From: an uncultured Planctomycetota bacterium
GTDB taxonomy: Bacteria > Planctomycetota > Planctomycetia > Isosphaerales > Isosphaeraceae
Reading direction: 5' to 3'
Length of the DNA stretch: 64,000 bases
Assembly (NCBI GenBank): GCA_963845755.1
Contig: CAWJTV010000011.1
Coordinates: forward strand, 1,120,001-1,184,000
This document shows positions 174 to 63,329 of this stretch, piece after piece (position 1 is the first letter of the stretch; each line of letters starts with the position of its first letter). A program made the translations under genes and the position numbers. Under the pieces are notes generated by a model. The model did no database searches and was not told the DNA's origin. It saw only the letters and a program-made list of their open reading frames with translations.

Positions 174-3103
174 ATGAGCATTCCCCCTCGGACGATCCGG
201 CGCGAGAGTGTCTTCATCAGTGCGGTCACGCGCGAACTGGGCACGGTGCGAGACCTCGTGAAGAAAGCACTCGAGGACAGCGACTATCATGCCGTCGAGC
301 AGAAGAACTTCCCCGCCGATTACCGCGACCTGAAGGACAAGCTCCGCGAGCGGATCGGCTCGTGCGAGGCCGTGATCCACATCGCCGGCCACTGCTACGG
401 CGCCGAGCCGCCCGAGAAGCCCGCCGACGCGCCCCGGCGCAGCTATACCCAGCTCGAATACGACATCGCCGTCGAGCTGGAGAAGCCGGTCTATGCCTTC
501 CTCACCGGCGCCGGCTTCCCGGCCGACCGGCACGATTCCGAGCCCGCCGAGCTTCAGGAGTTGCAGGAGGCCCATCGCCATCGCGTGGCTTCGACCGGCC
601 AGGATTACAACCCCGTGGCCACGCCGAGGAGCTCGACCAGAAGATCCGCGGCCTGCGCCTGAAAGTGGAACGGCTCGCCACCGAGCTCCAGCAGGTCGAC
701 CAAAAGGTGGACGAGCACAGCGGCCGGTTGCGACGCGGACTCGTCGCCGTCGCGGTCCTGGTGATCACCGGGTTGGGCGCAATGGGTTACGTCGGCTGGC
801 GGCAGCAGGCCGAACATCGGGCCCAGCAGGACGAGCAAGTGAGGCAGCAGGCGGAACGCGAACGGCAGCAGGCGGAACGCGACAAGCAGGAACGCGAACG
901 GCTTGCGGCGGAGGCCGCTCGCAAAGAGGCTCAGACGATTCAGCAGGTCCAGCAGGAGTTCGCCGAGCGGTTCCTCCAGCAACTGTTGACGGACAAGCAG
1001 ATCTCAGCGGAGGTCGCCCGCCAGCGTGCCCTCAAGGAGTTGCCGGCGCTGGTCAAGCTCCCCCTGGCGGAGATCCAGGCCCTGATCGACCGCAAGATCG
1101 CCCCGCGGGCGACCGAGGAGAGCCTGTCTCCCCTCGACCGGGCGCGGGCAGCCCTGGCCAAGGGGAATCTTGATGAGGTGTTCCGGGCGTCGGACGAGCA
1201 GAAGCAGCAAGGGCGTGAGCTGGCGATGCTGGAAGGCACCGCGGCGCTGGCCCAGTTCCGCAAGACGCCGAAGCCGGAATGGAACACGCCGCGCCCTCGC
1301 CGCGTTCCAGCGGGCCATGGCCTCGGCCGACCCGAAATCCCCGACGGAGTGGCAAGCCTGGACCGACGCCGCGGTCGCGACCGCTTCGATTTTACACGAT
1401 CTTGCTCATTATTCGGAAGCTGAGCCACTGCTGCGGGATTGTCTGCGACTCCGCGAAGCCAACCGAGGGCCGAACTCGCCAGATGTCGCCATCGTCCTCA
1501 ACAACCTGGCGTTGTTGCTCCAGGCCACGAATCGGCTGGCGAGGCCGAGCCGCTCTTTCGCCGCGCGTTGGCGATCGACGAGCGAATCGTACGGCCCTCA
1601 CCACCCCACCGTTGCGAAAAGCCTCAACAACCTGGCGTTGTTGCTCCAGGCCACGAATCGGCTGAGCGAGGCCGAGCCGCTCTTTCGCCGCGCGTTGGCC
1701 ATCGACGAGAAATCGTACGGCCCCGACCACCCCGACGTTGCGATCGACCTCAACAACCTGGCGTTGTTGCTCCAGGCCACGAATCGGCTGAGCGAGGCCG
1801 AGCCGCTCTTTCGCCGCGCGTTGGCCATCGACGAGAAATCGTACGGCCCGGACCACCCCGACGTTGCGATCCACCTCAACAACCTGGCGGTGTTGCTCTA
1901 TGCCACGAAACGAATGACAGAGGCCGAGCCGTTGATGGCACGGGCCATTCGCATCCTCTCGCAATTCCAGCGATTGACCGGTCACGAACACCCGAACCTG
2001 CGAACCGATGTCGAAAACTACCGCCAACTGCTCACCCAGCACAAGCTGGCCGAGCCCGAGATCGCCAGGCGGATCAAGGCAGCGAGAGAGGGGACGGACA
2101 AGCTGTCGCCCATCATCCCCGAGGTGGAGCGGCTCCTCGGCCCGGCCAGACCGGTCGCGGACGTGCTGACATCCCTGGATCGCCAGTACAAAGAGCAGGG
2201 CAGACCGGCCGTCTATTTCCTCAGGCCCAAAGAACCGATCGCCCCTCATCTCGACGAGCTCCTCCGGCCCGACGGCGACTGGTTGAATGCCCAGGGAGTC
2301 CTCGCGTTCCGCAGGCGTGATTATGCCAGCGCAGTCGTGTTCTACGACGCCGCCCTGGAGCTGATGGCCGGCCAACCCGCAAAGCTTCCGACACGGCTCC
2401 TCATTCGCCTGAATCGTGCGGCGGCCTTGCGCGACTTGGGCCAGGTCTCGCAGGCGCGCGACGACCTCGTAAAGCTACTGCCCGAGCTCGATCAGCTCCC
2501 GGCCACGGAATCCACAACGAAGGGCCGGGCTCGCTATCACCTCGCGGTTTGCCAGTGGCGCCTGGGCGATCGGGCCGCGGCCCAGAAGTCGGTGGAGGAG
2601 TCGCTCGCCGTTTACGACGCCGCGCCGAAAGCGAAGCCCGTCGATCCTGGCATCCGTCAGCAGTCCGAGGAACTGCTCGCGGCCCTGAAGGCTGGAAAGG
2701 CCCCACCGCCGCTGGCCGCGATCGACGCACCCGCCGCGCTCGAGGCCGCCCGAGCCCGCTATCGAGCCCGCGAGGCGCTGACGAGGCTCCCCTTGAAGGA
2801 GAAGGCGGCTCCCTTGCTGGATCAGGTCCTCGGCCCGGCCCGGTCCACCGAGGAGGTCTTCGACGGCACTCGACCGCTACTACCGCGAGCAAGGGAAGCC
2901 CGCCGTCTGGTTCCTGCCGCTGAAGGAACCCATCGCGCCGCACCTCGATCAACTCCTCGGGCCGGCCAAGACCGTCAAGGAGGTGCTCGACTCTCTCGAC
3001 CGGCAGATACCGTGCCAAGGGGAAGCCTGCGGTCTGGTTCCTGCCGATCAACGAGCCGATCAGCCCGCACCTCGACGAGCTTCTGGGCAAGCCATCGAAG
3101 TAG
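174..3103 (+). CDS. DUF4062 domain - TM helix - coiled coil - TPR protein with C-terminal 42-aa repeats (stitched across several frameshifts)
   Basis: N-term VFISAV...IGSCEAVIHIAGHCYG...SYTQLEYDIA (DUF4062-like); shift near 620 into ORF 71..1423 with hydrophobic LVAVAVLVITGLGAMGYVGW and Q/E/R coiled coil; shift near 1285 into ORF 1170..3146 with LNNLALLLQATNRLSEAEPLFRRALAIDEKSYG TPRs; tail ends GKPSK-TAG at 3101-3103. Confidence 0.8.
1497..1950 (+). repeat. Four 126-bp (42-aa) kinesin-light-chain-type TPR coding repeats
   Basis: ctcaacaacctggcg recurs at about 1497, 1623, 1749 and 1876. Confidence 0.9.
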
Positions 3104-53212: not shown

Positions 53213-53339
53213 GTCGGGTGTACCGAATACTCCTTGACTTCCTCGTGACCGAGCTGACCGACAATCTGAATCCGGCAGACTGCACATTCTGTCGTTCGAC
53301 CCGCCCTACCTCTCCAGATATCACGTAGGAAAGCCGCAT

Positions 53340-54137
53340 CTACTTGTTCGCGATCGCCGCCGTCCAGTGGGTGATCTCGTCGGCGGTCATCATTCCTTGG
53401 GGTTTCAAGCGAGCGTCCTCATAGCCCCACAAACCGATGTCAACCAGGTATTGCTCGCGCGAGAGCAGCGTCCCCTGGCAGAGCTTTTCCGCGGGCTCCG
53501 GTTGCCCCGACTCCCGCCGGAGGCAGTCCGACAACTCCTTCATGACCCAGGATGGGACCGTGTCGCGCTCGCCAGGATAGATAAATCCAAACATCACGAG
53601 ATGCGAGAAGAGAATGCGCCAATCCCGGTCGAACCGACGGAGCAGGCGGTGCCAGTCGAAGTTCCGGCCGCTCTGGCGGATGAGGTGGGCGATGTCGGCC
53701 CCGTCGAACCGTTCGCGCTCCATGACATATCCTTTCGACCAGATAATCTCCTCGGGCGGGCACAGTCGCACCGGGATGCCGAGCAGCTCGGCCGGGACCG
53801 CGTGCGCGAACCAATCGTCGTCAACCGTGGCCACGCCGTTGCCCGATCGGTAGATCACGTCAACGAACCGTTCGACGATCCAGGCCTTGGCCAGCCAATG
53901 AGGGAAGGTGACCTCGGTCCGATAGCCGTGTGCCTCGAACGCACGGAGGATTCGATCCAGATCGCTCGCGCGCACGAAGACGTCGATATCCTTCGTATGC
54001 CGCTCGATCCCGGCCAGGGTCGCCAGGGAATACGCCCCACCCACGAGATAAGGCACGTCGGTTTCATTCAGGATCGTGAGCGTGCGAATATAGAAATCGC
54101 GCGTCCCTTGATCGAGCTCCACATGTCCGGGCTGCAC
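53340..54137 (-). CDS. Uncharacterised pol-beta-superfamily nucleotidyltransferase
   Basis: YLVGGAYSL...RHTKDIDVF (GG + DxD), RERFDGADIAH; SD GGAGG before GTG. Confidence 0.88.
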   Translation of the reverse strand: MQPGHVELDQGTRDFYIRTLTILNETDVPYLVGGAYSLATLAGIERHTKDIDVFVRASDLDRILRAFEAHGYRTEVTFPHWLAKAWIVERFVDVIYRSGNGVATVDDDWFAHAVPAELLGIPVRLCPPEEIIWSKGYVMERERFDGADIAHLIRQSGRNFDWHRLLRRFDRDWRILFSHLVMFGFIYPGERDTVPSWVMKELSDCLRRESGQPEPAEKLCQGTLLSREQYLVDIGLWGYEDARLKPQGMMTADEITHWTAAIANK

Positions 54138-54212
54138 GAGTCCGCCTCCTTGGCAGTAGGCAGTAGGTAATAGGCAACATCCTCAACCCTGCCAATTGTT
54201 CTCTACAGGAGA

Positions 54213-54228
54213 GGCACGGCGCGTGCCG
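54213..54228 (-). promoter_or_regulatory. sigma54-type -24/-12 promoter for the nucleotidyltransferase
   Basis: minus strand cGG-CACGCGCCGT-GCc (GG-N10-GC). Confidence 0.55.
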
Positions 54229-54231
54229 AAC

Positions 54232-54247
54232 CGGCATCGGCTTTGCA
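54232..54247 (+). promoter_or_regulatory. sigma54-type -24/-12 promoter for the metallophosphoesterase
   Basis: cGG-CATCGGCTTT-GCa. Confidence 0.7.
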
Positions 54248-54298
54248 ACCGAGGGATTTACTACCTACTGCCTACTGCCTACTGCCTGGGAGGCGGAC

Positions 54299-55084
54299 AT
54301 GCTCGACTCGGAAAACCTGGTGCGTCTGGCCGCGGTAGGAGATCTGCATTGCACCAAGAAGTCGCAGGGGCAGTTCCAGGCGTTATTCACGGCGGCGGCT
54401 GAGCAGGCGGACATCCTGGTTCTCTGCGGCGACTTGACCGACTATGGCCTACCGGAGGAGGCCGAGATCCTGGTCCGGGAGATGGCCGGCGCCGCCAAGC
54501 TTCCGACGATCGCCGTCCTGGGCAACCACGACTTCGAGTCGGGGCACGAGGCGGAGGTCCGGCAAATCCTGGTCGATGCGGGCATGATCGTGCTCGATGG
54601 CGATGCCATCGAGGTGCGCGGGATCGGCTTCGCGGGTGCGAAGGGGTTCGCGGGTGGTTTCGGTCGTGGCACGCTCGGCGCCTGGGGTGAACGAGCCGTC
54701 AAGGTCTTCGTACAAGAAGCGATCGACGAAGCGATGAAGCTCGAGGCGGCCCTGGCGCGCCTTCGCACTGAGCGTCGCATCGCCGTGTTGCATTATGCAC
54801 CGATCCGGGCCACGGTCGAGAACGAGCCGGTCGAGATCTTCCCCTTCCTGGGATGCAGTCGCCTGGAGGACCCGCTCAACCGCTATCCCGTCACGGCCGT
54901 GCTCCACGGCCATGCGCATAACGGCAGCCCGCAGGGCCGGACCAGCGCCGGCGTGCCTGTGTACAATGTCTCGCTGCCCCTGCTCCGCAAGACCTCCCCG
55001 GAATCGCATCCCTTCCGCATCCTCGAGATTCCCACGGGACCGGGCGCGGAGCCCGAGACGCCGGCGACGAAACCGGAGATGTGA
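54299..55084 (+). CDS. Calcineurin-like metallophosphoesterase
   Basis: GDLH, CGDLTD, GNHD, LHY, HGHAH motifs. Confidence 0.92.
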   Translation: MLDSENLVRLAAVGDLHCTKKSQGQFQALFTAAAEQADILVLCGDLTDYGLPEEAEILVREMAGAAKLPTIAVLGNHDFESGHEAEVRQILVDAGMIVLDGDAIEVRGIGFAGAKGFAGGFGRGTLGAWGERAVKVFVQEAIDEAMKLEAALARLRTERRIAVLHYAPIRATVENEPVEIFPFLGCSRLEDPLNRYPVTAVLHGHAHNGSPQGRTSAGVPVYNVSLPLLRKTSPESHPFRILEIPTGPGAEPETPATKPEM

Positions 55085-55129
55085 GACGACTCGCACTCTG
55101 ATCCCATCGCCGAGATTCGCGCGAACCGT

Positions 55130-55622
55130 TCACGCCCGTTCCTCGGGCCGGGTGACATCCGGCACGTCCACCCCCAGCGCGGTCGCCAGGTCCATCTGGT
55201 GTTCCTGTTCGTTGACCAGGATACTGCGGATCTGCTCGGCCAGAGCATATTCGCCGAGTGCCTCGCACTGGCGCACGCGCTCGCGATAATTCCGGATCGT
55301 TTCGTTCTCATTCTCCAGGTCGAAGCGGAGCATCTCTTCCGCCTTCTCCGAGGTCTTCACCGGCCTGGGCGTCACCGACGGCATGCCGCCGAGGTAATCG
55401 ATCTGCTTGGCGATTGTCAGCGCAGTGCTGAAGCTCCTGCTTCGCGTGCAGCTCCAGTTCGCCGGCGATGTTCATGTACTGTGCGCCCTTGAGGACCTGC
55501 GAATACACCACATAGGCGATGATCGCCTGGTACTCGCGGGAGAGGTCCTGGTTGAGCAGCTCGATCAACTGCTCGCGGGAAACCGTCTTCGATCCTGTGG
55601 ATGCGGTCGCAACGTTGGCCAT
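55130..55622 (-). CDS. Ferritin-like (bacterioferritin-related) protein; frameshift near 55420
   Basis: LLNQDLSREYQAIIAY, QELQHA, IDYLGG.P, DLENENETIRNY, NEQEH di-iron motifs. Confidence 0.9.
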
Positions 55623-55663
55623 GGTATGCTCCTGAACGGGGGATAAACCTTCCACTGCGGCAG

Positions 55664-55679
55664 AGCAAATGTCATGCCG
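55664..55679 (-). promoter_or_regulatory. sigma54-type -24/-12 promoter for the ferritin-like gene
   Basis: minus strand cGG-CATGACATTT-GCt, about 42 bp upstream of ATG. Confidence 0.7.
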
Positions 55680-55895
55680 AGTCCCAATGGCCCACCAACG
55701 GCCCCGCAGCCGGAGCATGCCGGGGGAACGGCCAGGCTCGAGCTTCTCTGTTCCCGCGAGTCTCGACACCTGGCCGCCCCGAGGTACCGAGGGTTGCAAA
55801 CGCCGCACCAGTGACGTTCGGGACCGCGAGAGATCCGGTCGCAAGGGACATTCTGTCTCCCGGTTCGTCCGGTCACGACGTGGCTCGAATCGGCC

Positions 55896-55911
55896 CGGCA
55901 CCGATTTTGCG
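55896..55911 (+). promoter_or_regulatory. sigma54-type -24/-12 promoter for the HAD-ATPase gene
   Basis: cGG-CACCGATTTT-GCg, about 74 bp upstream of ATG. Confidence 0.7.
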
Positions 55912-55984
55912 ACGGGGATACCTTCTCGGGCTTCGCTTGATCGTTAGGTTGAGAAGCCCCTTGTTCTTACGGAGACAGAACCGA

Positions 55985-57762
55985 ATGCGATACCTGGCCC
56001 TGGCTGCCGACTATGATGGGACCCTGGCCAAGGATGGCCATGTCGACGGATCGACCCTGGCGGCCCTCGAGCGATTCCGAGAATCAGGCCGTCGTCTTAT
56101 CCTGGTCACGGGCCGGGAGCTCGATGAACTGCTGGAAATCTTCCCGCGGATCGACCTTTTCGATCGCGTCGTGGTCGAGAACGGCGCGTTGCTCTACCGG
56201 CCCGAGGGCCGTGAGGAAAAGGTGCTGGGCGAGCCTCCTCCTCCCGCGTTGGTCGAGGCGCTCCGGACGCGTGGAGTCGAACCGCTCTCCGTGGGGCGTG
56301 CGATCATCGCCACGCGGGAACCGCAGCAAGGTGCCGTCCTCGATGCCATCCGCGAGCTGGGCCTGGAATGGCAGGTCATCTTCAACAAAGGGTCCGTCAT
56401 GGTGCTCCCCTCGGGCATCAACAAGGCGACAGGCCTGGCCGTCGCGCTCGAGGAGCTGGCCCTCTCGCCGCACAACGTCGTCGGCGTGGGCGACGCCGAG
56501 AACGACCACGCGTTCCTGAGCCTCTGCGAGTTCTCGGCCGCCGTGGCCAACGCGTTGCCGACGCTCAAGGAGCGGGCCGATTTCGTCACCCGGCAGAGTC
56601 ACGGCCGGGGGGTCGTCGAGCTCATCGATCAGATCCTCGCCGACGAACTGGAGACGCTCTCGCGGTGCATGACGCGGCATGCGATCCCCCTCGGCACGCG
56701 CGAGGATGGGACCGAGATCGGCATCGACTGCTACGGAGTGAACATCCTGGTCGCGGGGACATCGGGGAGCGGCAAGTCAACGATCACCACCGGGCTGCTG
56801 GAGCGGCTCGCCGAGGCCGGTTACCAGTTCGCGGTCGTCGATCCCGAGGGGGATTACTCGACGCTCGAAGGCGCGGTCGTCCTGGGCGAGCCGGAGCAGG
56901 CTCCCACCGTCGAGGGAGCCCTCGATCTCCTGGCCGGGCCCCGACAGAATGCCGTGGTCAACCTGGTCGGCATCCCGATCGAGCACCGGCCCGCCTTCTT
57001 CGATGGACTGCTGCCGCGCCTCCAGGAGCTGAGGACCCGGACCGGCCGGCCCCACTGGATCGTCGTCGAACGAGACGCACCACCTCGTCCCTACCACCTG
57101 GCACCCCACCCCGCTGACCCTTCCTCAACAACTGGAAGGGATGCTGCTCATCACCGTCCATCCCGAGAGCATCGCCGAGGCGATGTTGACCGCGGTCGAC
57201 CTGGTCCTGGCCGTGGGCGGATCACCCGAGCAGACCATCCGGGCCTTTTGCAAGGCCGTGGGGGAAAGTCCGCCCAACATTGAACCGACCCAGCTCGAGC
57301 CGGGCGAGGTCCTCGCCTGGTGGCGCCGATCGAACGAATTGCCGATCCGGGTCCGCGGTATCCTCCCGCGCTCGAGAGCGCCGCCGCCATTCCCGCAAGT
57401 ATGCCGAGGGAAACCTGGGACCCGACCGGAGTTTCCACTTCCGGGGTCCGGACGAGAAGCTCAACCTCCGCGCCCAGAACTTGAACCTGTTCCTCCAGAT
57501 CGCCGACGGCGTCGACGACGAGACCTGGACGCATCACCTCCGCCAGGGGGACTATTCGGAATGGTTCCGCGACAAGATCAAGGATGCCGAACTCGCCGAC
57601 GAGACAAAGCGGATCGAGCAGCAGTCGGGGATCAGCCCCCAGGACTCGCGCGCCGCCATCCGCGAGGAGGTCGAACGCCGATACACCCTCCCCAGCGAAC
57701 CGGCGGAGTATACCAAGGCCGCCGAGCCGGCCTCGGAAGTAACGGCCGATTCCAGAAAGTAA
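55985..57762 (+). CDS. HAD-IIB (Cof-like) phosphatase fused to a HerA/DUF87-like P-loop domain (frameshifted)
   Basis: DYDGTL, VTGR, NKATGL, GDAEND; GTSGSGKST, VVDPEGDY; C-term RRHSRKYAEG...SFHFRG. Confidence 0.88.
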
Positions 57763-57846
57763 GACAGTTGTGCTTTCCTCGCCCTCGTATGGGGGAGGTA
57801 GCCGAAGGCCGGTGGGGGTGTGCTCGTTCGCTATAAGGATGCGAGG

Positions 57847-60641: not shown

Positions 60642-62884
60642 ACCCCGGATCCGCGTCTCGGACAGTTTCTTACATGAGGTTCTTTTGTTGTCGGGGTAAT
60701 CCATCGAGAACGGGCGTACGTCACGATCTGGACTGACCCGAGATCGAGTCGGCGACGGCGCAAGACATCCAATCTCCCTCGGATCGCGGTCGCGAAGGGA
60801 TGGGTCGCATCGAAGACTCGCCGGCAAAGCGTCTCCGCTTCCTGGAAGAGGATCTCGGCACCGACGGTATCGCCGCACGCCAGGAGGGCGTCGGCTGAAG
60901 ATGCCAGACAGTTCAGGTAGCGGGGATCCAGCTCGCCGTAGCTGTCGCGGAAAATCGCATTCTTGCGGTCGAAGGTGGATCGCGCGCCGGCCCAATCTCC
61001 CTGCTCCGCCTGCAACTGACCAACGACCGTCATCCAGGTCGAGAAATCGGGGCTGAGTTCACCTGCGATCGCCCGGCTCAGCTCGACCATCCGAAGCGAT
61101 AAGATCTCGGCATCCTTCTTGCGCCCCAGGGAAATCAACCCCAAGATCTCGCCTCGGAGGCGGTGGGACTCGACCTGGAATTGGTCGACGTCCGAGGGCG
61201 GCCCTGCCATCGAATCCGGTCGCTCAGGCGCGCCACGATCGGCGATCGGTTCCGTCGCGACGTCAGATTCGATGGTCGGATCAGGCGTCGCCGGGACGGC
61301 CTCGGGGGATTGGGCTCCGCGCAGATCCATGAGTTGCGGCAGCCAGGCGCGGACGTCGATCAGTTCGAGGGCGATGTCCAGTTCGGGGGTAGAGATTTCG
61401 CCGGTCGAGTGCAGGGCGAAGATGCCGTCGGATGCTCCCATCGGACGTGCGGGCGTCGTCGATCTCGCGGCCGGTTGGCCCGGCAGGCGCACGGATTCGG
61501 CAAAGCCCGGACGACTGACGGGCGGCCTGGCTTCACGCCTGCCTTGAAATCCGGCGGCAGCGCCCACGAAGGCGGCCACCTCAGCGGCCACCTCATCGTT
61601 GATCGGACGCTCGCGAGCGATAAGCGACTTGAGCTGCTTCTCTTCCGCCTCAAGTTTGGCCAGGTCTCGCATCTGAGCATGCAACAGTCGGAGCTCTTCT
61701 CGTGATGTCGCCAGCTCGTGTTCCCGGGCTCGGAGCGTACGGGCGTACTCGTCTTCGACGGCCCTCCGCGCGGTCACAGCCTCCGTCATCTGGCTTTCCA
61801 ACTCTCCGAGGCGGGCCCGTAGCTGTTCCGCTTCCCGCGGATGGATCAGCCGCTCGGTCGAGTCCTTTTCGATCTCGGCCAGGGCCTGGTAGATTCCGTC
61901 CTGGAGTGTCGACGAATGAGCGAGCAGGTCTTCGAACTCGCGCGTTGCCGTATCGGCGGCGTCCCGGGCATCGCGGCAATCGGCTCGCAGCCGCGCGACC
62001 TCCTCGATGGCGGCCCGTAACTCCTCTTCGAGCCGCGCCGACGACGCGGCGCGGTCGCGCACCGCGGCCGCCTCAGACTTGTGGCGCTCGAGTTCCGTCC
62101 GGATTTCCTCCAGCTCGACCCGTAGGTCATCTTCGCGCCGGGACCGCTCTCTCGCCTGGTCCTTGAGACCTTCACATTCGGCTGCAAGTCTCTCGGACTC
62201 GCACGCCCCGCTCCTGAACAAGTCGACTTCGACGCGAAGTCGGTCGAGCTGCGTACGCGCCTCCACGAGTTCTTCATTCGACCCCACGTCGTCTTCGGAA
62301 TCCTCGACCGTCGGTCCCAGAGGCGCGGGGGATGGCGATTCTCCGATCGCCGGGACCGGCCCGACCGAGTTTCCCCGCACCACTTCGTCCACCCAGTCCT
62401 GCTCGCACTGGCCAGCCGACTCGATTCCGCCGGTCGTCAGGACAGGGGCTGGACCTGCCCCTTCGGCTCGCCCCGCCTCGAAGTCGGCGAGCCCCTGGGA
62501 ACGGCCGTCTTCACCGGAGTCGGCCTTCTCAGGGTGATCATCGACCATGGACGAGTGGAGGCCATTGCTCATGGATGGGACGTGCATCTCGCACGGCCCC
62601 CCTGTCATCGACGCGGCCTCCCGTTGATTCGATGGGACTTTATCGTTAGTGACGGGCAGCGCCTCGTACACGACGTCGCAGCGGTTGCATCGGATCACCC
62701 GCCCTAGATCCTCGGCCCGGAAACTTGCGCCCAGCCCGCACTCCGGACAGGCGACCGGCAGGATCCGGGGTACCACGAAGGGATGACTGCAGCGGTTACA
62801 CTGGACTCGCTGACCGATGTATTCGGTCCGAATCTTGACGGTCTGATGGCATTTGGGACAAGGGATCGGGACTCGATTGAGCAT
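60539..62884 (-). CDS. Double Zn-ribbon / coiled-coil / TPR-like protein (3' end uncertain)
   Basis: CPKC..CNRC..CPEC..CNRC; long E/R-rich coiled coil; C-terminal KLC-like helices (YGELDPRY..L). Confidence 0.7.
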   Translation of the reverse strand: MLNRVPIPCPKCHQTVKIRTEYIGQRVQCNRCSHPFVVPRILPVACPECGLGASFRAEDLGRVIRCNRCDVVYEALPVTNDKVPSNQREAASMTGGPCEMHVPSMSNGLHSSMVDDHPEKADSGEDGRSQGLADFEAGRAEGAGPAPVLTTGGIESAGQCEQDWVDEVVRGNSVGPVPAIGESPSPAPLGPTVEDSEDDVGSNEELVEARTQLDRLRVEVDLFRSGACESERLAAECEGLKDQARERSRREDDLRVELEEIRTELERHKSEAAAVRDRAASSARLEEELRAAIEEVARLRADCRDARDAADTATREFEDLLAHSSTLQDGIYQALAEIEKDSTERLIHPREAEQLRARLGELESQMTEAVTARRAVEDEYARTLRAREHELATSREELRLLHAQMRDLAKLEAEEKQLKSLIARERPINDEVAAEVAAFVGAAAGFQGRREARPPVSRPGFAESVRLPGQPAARSTTPARPMGASDGIFALHSTGEISTPELDIALELIDVRAWLPQLMDLRGAQSPEAVPATPDPTIESDVATEPIADRGAPERPDSMAGPPSDVDQFQVESHRLRGEILGLISLGRKKDAEILSLRMVELSRAIAGELSPDFSTWMTVVGQLQAEQGDWAGARSTFDRKNAIFRDSYGELDPRYLNCLASSADALLACGDTVGAEILFQEAETLCRRVFDATHPFATAIRGRLDVLRRRRLDLGSVQIVTYARSRWITPTTKEPHVRNCPRRGSGVCRVGETHQNRDTSWWVSPTLQDSRIVSKSGFLA

Positions 62885-63329
62885 GGAACACCCGCGATAT
62901 GTGGCCAGGTCGCCAGGGCCGACGGGCACGATTGCCGGCCCGGCGACTACACTCGCCGCCATCGGTGAGTTCAACTGCGCAGGAGCGAGCAATCATCGAT
63001 TTAACATAAAAGATTCGCAATTCTTTATCAGGCAACAATGCAATGGTGATACCGATGTGTTTCTCTAGCTCTTGTATCTTGACTCGCAGATCTTAACGAG
63101 CCTAGGATAAGCCTTTCAAGTTCATTCCGACGGGCAGAGCGTAACCGGCGAATCAGCGTCGTTCGGCCGGCGTTGCGCACCGACCTTGCCGGTCGGCCAG
63201 TTCTCGCGGTTCCTCCAGGATCACCGTTCGCGGCGCGATGGCACTGCAAGATCTGGACGAGTCGACCCCCGTCGGGTCCGAAGCGCTCGTTGTGAGGGAA
63301 GCTGTCTGAACCCTCCGGAGGGTCCGAAT

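Follow-up and report, generated by a model that had tools for sequence, protein, structure and literature searches.

The window analysed here, a stretch of 64,000 nucleotides (nt) from an uncultured planctomycete (C11:1120001-1184000 of the assembly G000, which comprises 14.27 Mb in 49 contigs with 64.4% G+C), carries at 53340-57762 four genes arranged as two divergent pairs. They encode a nucleotidyltransferase (NTase), a metallophosphoesterase (MPE), a ferritin-like protein and a fusion of a HAD-type phosphatase with a P-loop ATPase (HAD-ATPase). Our comparative analysis leads us to conclude with good confidence that four, perhaps five, RpoN (sigma-54) promoters drive these genes, and that the frameshifts which interrupt two of them are most likely assembly errors. 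The genomes compared indicate that the conserved unit is the NTase-MPE pair and not the four-gene cluster, and that the ferritin-like and HAD-ATPase genes are separate predicted sigma-54 targets which stand beside the pair only in this lineage.

Each of the four genes is preceded by one box on its own strand: CGGCATcggctTTGCA at 54232-54247 (+) for the MPE, CGGCACgcgccGTGCC at 54213-54228 (-) for the NTase, CGGCATgacatTTGCT at 55664-55679 (-) for the ferritin-like gene and CGGCACcgattTTGCG at 55896-55911 (+) for the HAD-ATPase. As in canonical RpoN promoters, the spacing between GG and GC is exactly 10 nt, the locus has the extended match YGGCAYG-N4-TTGCW, the start codon follows 39-76 nt downstream of every box, and the genome encodes rpoN as well as about 20 activator genes. 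Unlike in canonical promoters, C is about as common as T before GG in this genome, the NTase and MPE promoters abut and leave no classical upstream enhancer region, and no activator gene is found near the locus. A preliminary description of this DNA had reported the four motifs, each with a same-strand gene downstream, and had read them as the RpoN -24/-12 signature. Motifs, strands and genes were all confirmed, together with one frameshift in the ferritin-like gene and two in the HAD-ATPase gene which that description did not contain. The boxes are very probably RpoN -24/-12 promoters, given the intact rpoN, the activator genes and the conservation of the boxes at orthologous loci.

The bare pattern GG-N10-GC carries no information in this genome, where it has 265,755 matches. 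The longer form GGCAY-N5-TTGC occurs 266 times, compared with about 278 occurrences expected by base composition; 54 of these 266 sites (20%) are followed by a co-oriented gene call at a distance of 10-250 nt, compared with a mean of 18.7 of 374 (5%) for 30 letter-permuted control motifs. We trained a sigma-54 matrix on upstream sites of the genome, leaving this locus out and removing repeated copies; only unique sites were used because one insertion sequence, of which the genome has about 17 copies, contains a box of this type that would inflate the matrix. Counting unique sites in upstream regions with a co-directional neighbour gene, we obtained 171 sense and 93 antisense matches with scores of at least 10, 44 and 8 with scores of at least 14, 37 and 4 with at least 15, and 26 and 2 with at least 16. 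This asymmetry is independent of the fine detail of the gene calls. Three boxes of the locus, with scores of 20.6, 17.4 and 15.6, are strong because they stand well above the background given by these sense and antisense counts, and, with every upstream region of the genome counted, only 10 unique sites attain a score of at least 20, as the ferritin-like box does. The preliminary description had made its reading depend on scores above background, which holds for these three. The NTase box, which forms the perfect palindrome GGCACGGCGCGTGCC, is at background level when taken alone because its weak -12 element reads GTGC and not TTGC. Its conservation rescues it, as a box is predicted at the same place and in the same orientation in all eight related genomes which carry the gene pair.

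The rpoN gene which the promoter reading presupposes is present on contig C33, intact, with its activator-interacting, core-binding and DNA-binding domains (AID, CBD and DBD), and the 30 matches to the activator AAA+ domain PF00158 correspond to the roughly 20 activator genes. A sigma-54-type box with a score of 16.1 lies 159 nt upstream of rpoN itself (G000:C33:387998-388011), which hints at autoregulation of rpoN.

In our comparison set of 61 genomes (60 relatives and G000), NTase and MPE occur in the same eight genomes (G000, G001, G003, G015, G024, G033, G034 and G035), and in all eight the two genes are adjacent and divergent. Moreover, the intergenic region contains in every case two back-to-back boxes about 4-20 nt apart, one for each gene. 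In six genomes a strong GGCAY-N5-TTGCRA box faces the NTase gene and a GGGCAY-N5-TTGCC box faces the MPE gene, while the strong MPE box of the window is kept in G001 with a score of 18.4. The double-box cassette of about 40 bp (window positions 54205-54252) appears to be inverted in G000 and G001: aligned to G015, G035 and G034, its reverse complement gives 31, 20 and 20, as opposed to 13, 8 and 9 for the direct orientation. As a consequence of this apparent inversion, the strong box would serve the MPE gene in G000 and G001 and the NTase gene in the other six genomes, and it is a T-to-G change which makes the weaker box a perfect palindrome in these two genomes.

Boxes are also found at orthologues of the other two genes. 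For the HAD(-ATPase) gene, 6 of 20 loci (in G015, G006, G014, G030, G011 and G040) have a box scoring at least 12 at 30-63 nt upstream, and weaker boxes are present in G001, G059, G060 and G003. Among 15 loci with a ferritin-like orthologue, 7 show an upstream box at 39-74 nt; GTGC stands at -12 in four of the seven, so that this variant, which is also that of the NTase box, is tolerated within the family. In four further near relatives (L139-L142), boxes precede the HAD-ATPase gene in 4/4 cases and the ferritin-like gene in 3/3 (L139-L141).

The pair reaches far beyond the planctomycetes. A profile of the NTase retrieved 460 confirmed relatives from a collection of species-representative genomes, and the best 80 of these 460, on which our cross-phylum comparison is based, share 51-79% identity with the NTase. 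Their loci come from Planctomycetota, Acidobacteriota (mostly Thermoanaerobaculia), Melainabacteria, Cyanobacteria, Chloroflexota, Methylomirabilota, Beta- and Gammaproteobacteria, Myxococcota, Verrucomicrobiota and Gemmatimonadota, about ten phyla in all. An MPE orthologue adjoins the NTase gene in 78 of the 80 loci, either divergently or in an operon. The best box beats 200 shuffled sequences (p ≤0.02) in 38 of 76 loci tested, namely in all loci of Planctomycetota (12/12), Betaproteobacteria (6/6), other Proteobacteria (2/2) and Verrucomicrobiota (1/1), in 4/6 of Chloroflexota, 11/33 of Acidobacteriota and 1/4 of Methylomirabilota, in none of Melainabacteria (0/4), Cyanobacteria (0/2) and Myxococcota (0/2), and in one of the remaining five tested loci, which belong to four other groups. 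GG, GC and their spacing are kept across phyla and the spacer varies. Furthermore, rpoN is present in all seven tested genomes with boxes (G061-G065, G069 and G070) and was found in none of the three tested genomes without boxes (G066-G068), so that the presence of boxes and of rpoN is concordant in 10/10 genomes. Since the boxes are conserved at orthologues and track rpoN, sigma-54 control appears well supported.

In Thermoanaerobaculia (L150-L211), 25 loci have a one-strand operon with short gaps in which NTase and MPE are followed by an EgtB-like gene (DinB_2 and FGE-sulfatase domains), and an Fe/Mn superoxide dismutase gene comes next in 17 of the 25. Most of these operon loci carry GGCAY-N5-VTGCA 14-29 nt upstream; the same holds for many Acidobacteriota operons, to which the planctomycete matrix gives low scores. 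The pair thus stands beside antioxidant-type genes in two unrelated phyla, each case being one lineage. Among 17 longer NTase homologues, one is an NTase-MPE fusion, a singleton on a 1.9-kb contig. Another 11 have 160-310 additional residues in front of the NTase which do not match an MPE, and we take these 11 to be over-long open reading frame calls. The fused forms are weak evidence.

The coordinates of the genes, the predicted promoters and further features of the locus are collected in Table 1.

Table 1. Genes and candidate regulatory features of the four-gene locus (positions in the window)
Feature	Position	Strand	Description
Nucleotidyltransferase (NTase)	53340..54137	-	265 aa, Pol-beta superfamily, PF14907 NTP_transf_5, GTG start
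(CCTACTG)n heptamer array	54150..54172	-	predicted NTase 5' leader, just before ribosome-binding site
NTase sigma-54-type box ttCGGCACgcgccGTGCCtc	54211..54230	-	score 11.0; expected transcription start near 54202
MPE sigma-54-type promoter (predicted) acCGGCATcggctTTGCAac	54230..54249	+	score 17.4; expected start near 54258
(CCTACTG)3 heptamer array	54264..54286	+	predicted MPE 5' leader, just before ribosome-binding site
Metallophosphoesterase (MPE)	54299..55084	+	261 aa, calcineurin-like
Ferritin-like di-iron protein	55130..55622	-	about 163 aa if intact; start ATG at 55622; split by extra base 55424
Ferritin-like sigma-54-type promoter (predicted) ctCGGCATgacatTTGCTct	55662..55681	-	score 20.6; expected start near 55653
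Conserved hairpin, intergenic (ferritin-like/HAD-ATPase)	55725..55780	-	candidate structured RNA or activator-binding site
Second sigma-54-like box acTGGTGCggcgtTTGCAac	55793..55812	-	score 12.3; faces hairpin and ferritin-like gene
HAD-ATPase sigma-54-type promoter (predicted) ccCGGCACcgattTTGCGac	55894..55913	+	score 15.6; expected start near 55922
HAD-IIB phosphatase + HerA/DUF87-type P-loop ATPase + C-terminal region	55985..57762	+	about 590 aa if intact

The NTase is a member of the Pol-beta superfamily by its motifs, its PF14907 score (33.1 bits, Pfam cut-off 31.2) and its alpha-beta NTase fold. Across 44 sequences, the GG...DxD motif and a further, third acidic residue vary hardly or not at all (G34, D50 and D52 invariant, G33 and D93 nearly so), and the AF2 model has a pLDDT of 91.4. 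The nearest folds to its core are ANT(2'')-Ia, LnuA, MenT1, TM1012 and JHP933, with CCA-adding enzymes more distant; these matches have query-normalised TM values of at most 0.45 and identities of 12-20% at a probability of 1.00. Like ANT(2'')-Ia, LnuA and the MenT toxins, which provide the best structural matches of the core, the NTase has the GG...DxD catalytic motif. Unlike them, it has an additional, well-conserved C-terminal helical half (residues ~146-265), and it is partnered with an MPE and not placed in an antitoxin or resistance context. The MPE is a calcineurin-like metallophosphoesterase (PF00149, 48.6 bits, cut-off 21.5) in which the motifs DxH, GD, GNH, H and GHxH are kept across 41 sequences (D15, H17, G44, G75, N76, H77, H165, G204, H205 and H207 invariant, D45 nearly so). 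Its AF2 model (pLDDT 89.1) is nearest to MPPED2, Rv0805, PptH and purple acid phosphatases, with TM values around 0.6; a profile search of solved structures returned marginal LpxH matches only (E ~7e-4). The class III cyclic-nucleotide phosphodiesterases Rv0805 and MPPED2 are the best structural matches (TM ~0.55-0.63) and share all metal-binding motifs, but their identity to the MPE is only 18-22%. Predicting a complex of NTase and MPE gave a score of 0.00, which is evidence neither way.

The ferritin-like protein matches the general ferritin-like domain PF00210 in its C-terminal part, and its intact orthologue in G001 (163 aa) reaches 86.1 bits (cut-off 24.5). We rejected an identity as bacterioferritin or Dps, as the scores for bacterioferritin (TIGR00754, 43.2 vs 125.55), DpsA (39.8 vs 170) and Dps (PRK09448, 17.8 vs 114) are all below the equivalog cut-offs. 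The fourth gene encodes a fusion of a HAD-IIB phosphatase (TIGR01484, 83.7, cut-off 41.8) with a HerA/DUF87-type P-loop ATPase. Its Pfam matches are Hydrolase_3 and DUF87, the latter with 31.1 (cut-off 23.2) on the intact 597-aa orthologue of G001, and the window sequence shows the motifs DYDGT and GSGKST. Phosphoglycolate phosphatase (TIGR01487) was not retained as an assignment, its score of 103 being below the equivalog cut-off of 122.75. In PADLOC, the NTase matches AbiEii marginally (E = 0.005), the MPE matches the candidate family PDC-S10 (8.7e-14) and the ATPase matches the mad8/HerA P-loop; with no system-level match in PADLOC, we did not adopt a defence system as our principal interpretation.

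The possible fifth promoter is the second box between the ferritin-like and HAD-ATPase genes. It is kept in G001, L139 (11.9) and L140 (14.5), and in the same genomes and G000 box and hairpin are kept together, with diverging flanks. The consensus fold of the hairpin has 19 predicted pairs, several of which are held by one-sided G-U changes that are valid on the minus strand only, and one compensatory change affects both sides of a pair; the z-score of the single-sequence fold is -3.05. A search of 53300-57800 against Rfam with E values up to 1 gave no match. Across the 61 genomes, matches to the hairpin core were at the level of a reversed-pattern control and the block was found only in G000 and G001. 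These four sequences are suggestive of a sigma-54-dependent small RNA or leader, or of an activator-binding site.

Sigma-54 control itself is textbook knowledge. At this locus, sigma-54 RNA polymerase would wait in a closed state on each GG-N10-GC box until an enhancer-binding ATPase encoded elsewhere in the genome, most likely switched on by a stress signal, probably of oxidative, heat or drying stress, opens it. The ferritin-like protein would then handle iron and oxidants and limit iron-driven damage. The NTase, with its minimal fold of the ANT/Lnu/MenT type, may join a nucleotide to a conserved cellular substrate, and the MPE, a putative phosphodiesterase with an Rv0805/MPPED2-like fold, may cut such a nucleotide-phosphate bond, so that the two could form a writer/eraser or make/break couple. 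At the superfamily level, and with no substrate named, the modelled folds fit a nucleotide-transfer enzyme and a nucleotide phosphodiesterase. We also put forward, tentatively and as a proposal unlikely to hold as a whole, that the couple acts on a target such as an RNA 3' end, a protein or a small metabolite, that at least five phyla have placed it under sigma-54 and in connection with antioxidant genes, and that box and hairpin produce a sigma-54-dependent small RNA or leader which controls the ferritin-like gene. If so, the couple would attach a nucleotide reversibly to a conserved target during oxidative or drying stress, and the antioxidant link would consist of the ferritin-like protein here and of the EgtB-like protein and superoxide dismutase in Thermoanaerobaculia.

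The RtcR- and sigma-54-dependent rtcBA genes form a stress-induced RNA-repair operon, and in end-healing enzymes such as CthPnkp the Pnkp phosphatase domain belongs to the dinuclear metallophosphoesterases and can open ends with a 2',3'-cyclic phosphate (PMC7790460, PMC2190708). The present locus resembles rtcBA and CthPnkp, as described in these papers, in being a predicted sigma-54-dependent, stress-induced set of nucleic-acid-end enzymes. It differs in that no RtcA, RtcB, ligase or kinase gene was found among the neighbour clusters that recur at the 80 loci (five clusters have a Pfam name), that the NTase belongs to PF14907 and is neither a ligase nor of the RlaP family PF10127, and that no activator gene is adjacent. 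We rejected an RtcR-controlled RNA-repair operon, since there is no rtc gene in the Pfam-named neighbour clusters and no activator gene within 3 kb. RNA as the substrate of NTase and MPE is one guess among others.

The preliminary description regarded the four genes as one co-regulated stress or dormancy module. A dedicated module of this kind, with a single activator and with all products on one pathway, appears quite improbable to us. All four genes are adjacent, each with a box, in G000, G001, G015, L139, L140 and L141, L142 has three of them, the HAD gene also stands beside the pair in L142, L158, L188 and G024, and a ferritin-like gene accompanies the pair in 8/8 genomes, compared with 8 or 9 of the other 53 for a close orthologue; because these genomes are kin, this co-occurrence is a hint and no test. 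However, the four genes are together in these six only: ferritin-like and HAD genes are far from the pair or on other contigs in G003, G033 and G034, the ferritin-like gene likewise in G035, where no HAD gene was found, and in all the ferritin-like gene is remote or on another contig in 5/8 genomes with the pair. A full-length HAD-ATPase is present in only 3/8 and was not found in five genomes of other phyla with the pair, one of which has a HAD-only relative. The four-gene neighbourhood is confined to the nearest relatives. Nothing points to co-regulation by one activator, with neither a nearby activator gene nor a shared upstream motif. The stress component of the idea fits the EgtB-like/superoxide dismutase operon and the other top sigma-54 candidates of the genome. 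These include the chaperones HSP70, a DnaJ-domain protein, HSP20 and a GroES-like protein, furthermore Rex, a GH15 trehalase-like protein, KaiC-like and MutS-like proteins and a fatty-acid desaturase, and the little-known DUF3072, DUF1003, DUF3175 and small lysine-rich proteins; mixed as this set is, it leans clearly towards stress. That the boxes arose by chance or are operators of another protein, for example of a dimer on the palindrome, with the genes read from sigma-70-type promoters, is highly improbable. GG-N10-GC is abundant in DNA of 64% G+C, the total of GGCAY-N5-TTGC is what composition predicts, the NTase box combines a perfect palindrome with a background-level score, and many non-productive sigma-54 binding sites are reported for E. 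coli (PMC4591121). On the other hand, the palindrome exists only in G000 and G001, and at the corresponding position the other six genomes carry GGCAY-N5-TTGCC, which is not palindromic; in addition, the constancy of GG, GC and spacing across phyla with a variable spacer, the agreement between boxes and rpoN, and the sense-antisense asymmetry of the matrix matches all argue for promoters.

A further alternative concerns the frameshifts. The ferritin-like gene has one +1 frameshift, due to the extra base 55424, and the HAD-ATPase gene has two, near 57070, where the Walker B motif WIVVDE is cut, and near 57375. If these were real, the locus would be decaying, with two true pseudogenes and only NTase and MPE still at work, which we consider rather unlikely. 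Such decay would fit three +1 insertions within 2.3 kb of coding sequence, none of them in a long homopolymer, and a density of insertions above the rough rate given by three broken genes among about 20 activator genes. But the extra base 55424 is absent from short-read soil contigs of the runs X2 (198 bases, 3 of them mismatched) and X5 (168 bases, 8 mismatched) and base 57070 is absent from a 92%-identical contig of run X1, all of which come from strains other than the identical one; no contig of at least 99% identity was found over 57070. Moreover, the promoters of both genes are intact, their frames are open apart from the insertions, the proteins share 84-90% identity with those of G001, and the orthologues in G001 and G015 are intact. 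Three of the activator genes (C28:384322-384823, C40:134550-135049 and C28:241636-242128) are likewise split over two or three adjacent frames, which suggests that single bases were wrongly inserted or deleted throughout the assembly. Because of the contigs without the extra bases, the split activator genes and a genome completeness of 87.9%, the three frameshifts are probably assembly errors, an explanation we clearly favour over real mutations.

Several points weigh against four or five RpoN promoters and error-born frameshifts. For the third frameshift, near 57375, none of the contigs searched covers the site, an identical contig of X3 ending at 57373. The gene calls behind the genome-wide counts are crude (coding fraction 0.69), so that these counts are rough, and the conservation counts overstate the support as the related genomes are not independent; at least three planctomycete loci among the 80 duplicate intergenic sequences of the eight relatives. 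Apart from the background-level score which the NTase box has by itself, the back-to-back position of the NTase and MPE boxes leaves neither of them space upstream for a classical enhancer. No box was found in 10 of the 20 HAD loci and 8 of the 15 ferritin-like loci scanned, and most operon-type boxes of Acidobacteriota are weak by the planctomycete-trained matrix, 22 of 33 failing p ≤0.02. Searches with tblastn and two AAA+ domains revealed no activator gene in the window or within 3 kb in the 80 loci, and none in 19 of 20 13-kb loci of relatives; in the remaining one, L044, about 5 kb separate an activator gene from a distant HAD homologue. No 8-mer was significantly shared upstream of 90 candidate promoters in comparison with 1141 controls (the best p, 2e-4, being non-significant in view of how many words were compared), and the locus was not found in any RNA run searched. 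Finally, the substrate of NTase and MPE is a guess, as the modelled folds match at the superfamily level only.

According to a recent survey, predicted sigma-54 promoters are enriched before genes for GroEL/ES, IbpA, GrpE, DnaJ, DnaK, UspA and MscS in Planctomycetia (PMC12316311, PLoS One 2025). Our candidates agree with this survey, since they too include HSP70, DnaJ-domain, HSP20 and GroES-like proteins. The preliminary description knew of no account of its module. The link between sigma-54 and stress genes in Planctomycetia is already predicted in print (PMC12316311), and our locus adds members to a known type of regulon. The main text of that survey contains no ferritin, Dps, phosphoesterase, nucleotidyltransferase, haloacid or superoxide, and its supplements may list such groups. 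The NTase-MPE pair was not found in our literature searches, in which the PF14907 papers retrieved concern phosphonates. What is new is the target, a two-gene pair of uncharacterised function which about ten phyla have kept intact, with protein identities of 51-79%, and which carries sigma-54 boxes in most lineages that own rpoN. The pair could serve as a handle for finding a new stress-induced nucleotide-transfer reaction. Since cultivable Noviherbaspirillum strains (sp. ST 5-3, N. album and N. aerium; L193, L204 and L212) carry it with strong boxes, bench work is possible without growing a planctomycete. The back-to-back arrangement of sigma-54 promoters is an unusual layout and raises the question of where an activator binds.

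The predicted leaders of both genes of the pair contain CCTACTG heptamer arrays. Of the 49 such arrays in the genome, 44 are non-coding and 20 precede a co-oriented gene call by at most 60 nt; divergent intergenic regions are flanked by inverted pairs of arrays in 12 cases. CCTACTG gave 57 matches, compared with 0-11 for six control heptamers, and in G024 another heptamer, (GAGTGCT)n, occupies the same place in the leader. The arrays are reminiscent of the short tandem heptamer repeats of cyanobacteria. The MPE leaders of G001 (L083), G033 (L086) and G024 (L089) carry long palindromic insertions between promoter and start codon, which lengthen the leader to 195-337 nt and look like miniature mobile elements.

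An insert absent from the window separates the MPE and ferritin-like genes of G001 (L032:4804-6014). It codes for two proteins, one of 296 aa with a P-loop and one of 195 aa that matches no Pfam family; in G015 (L033) the two genes are separated by a gap of about 850 nt. Other matrix matches in the window, with scores of 14.0-14.4, are located at 61106-61125 (+), within a gene call on the opposite strand, at 63037-63056 (-) and at 3000-3019 (-). The insertion sequence mentioned above encodes a transposase, some copies of which are truncated (full-length copies of 266-268 aa, e.g. at C6:88880-89683, C41:562719-563519 and C33:44666-45466). In the full-length copies a strong sigma-54-like box, ACTGGCACGCTGTCTGCTCT, precedes the start codon by 47 nt and could act as a genuine promoter or simply belong to the end of the element.

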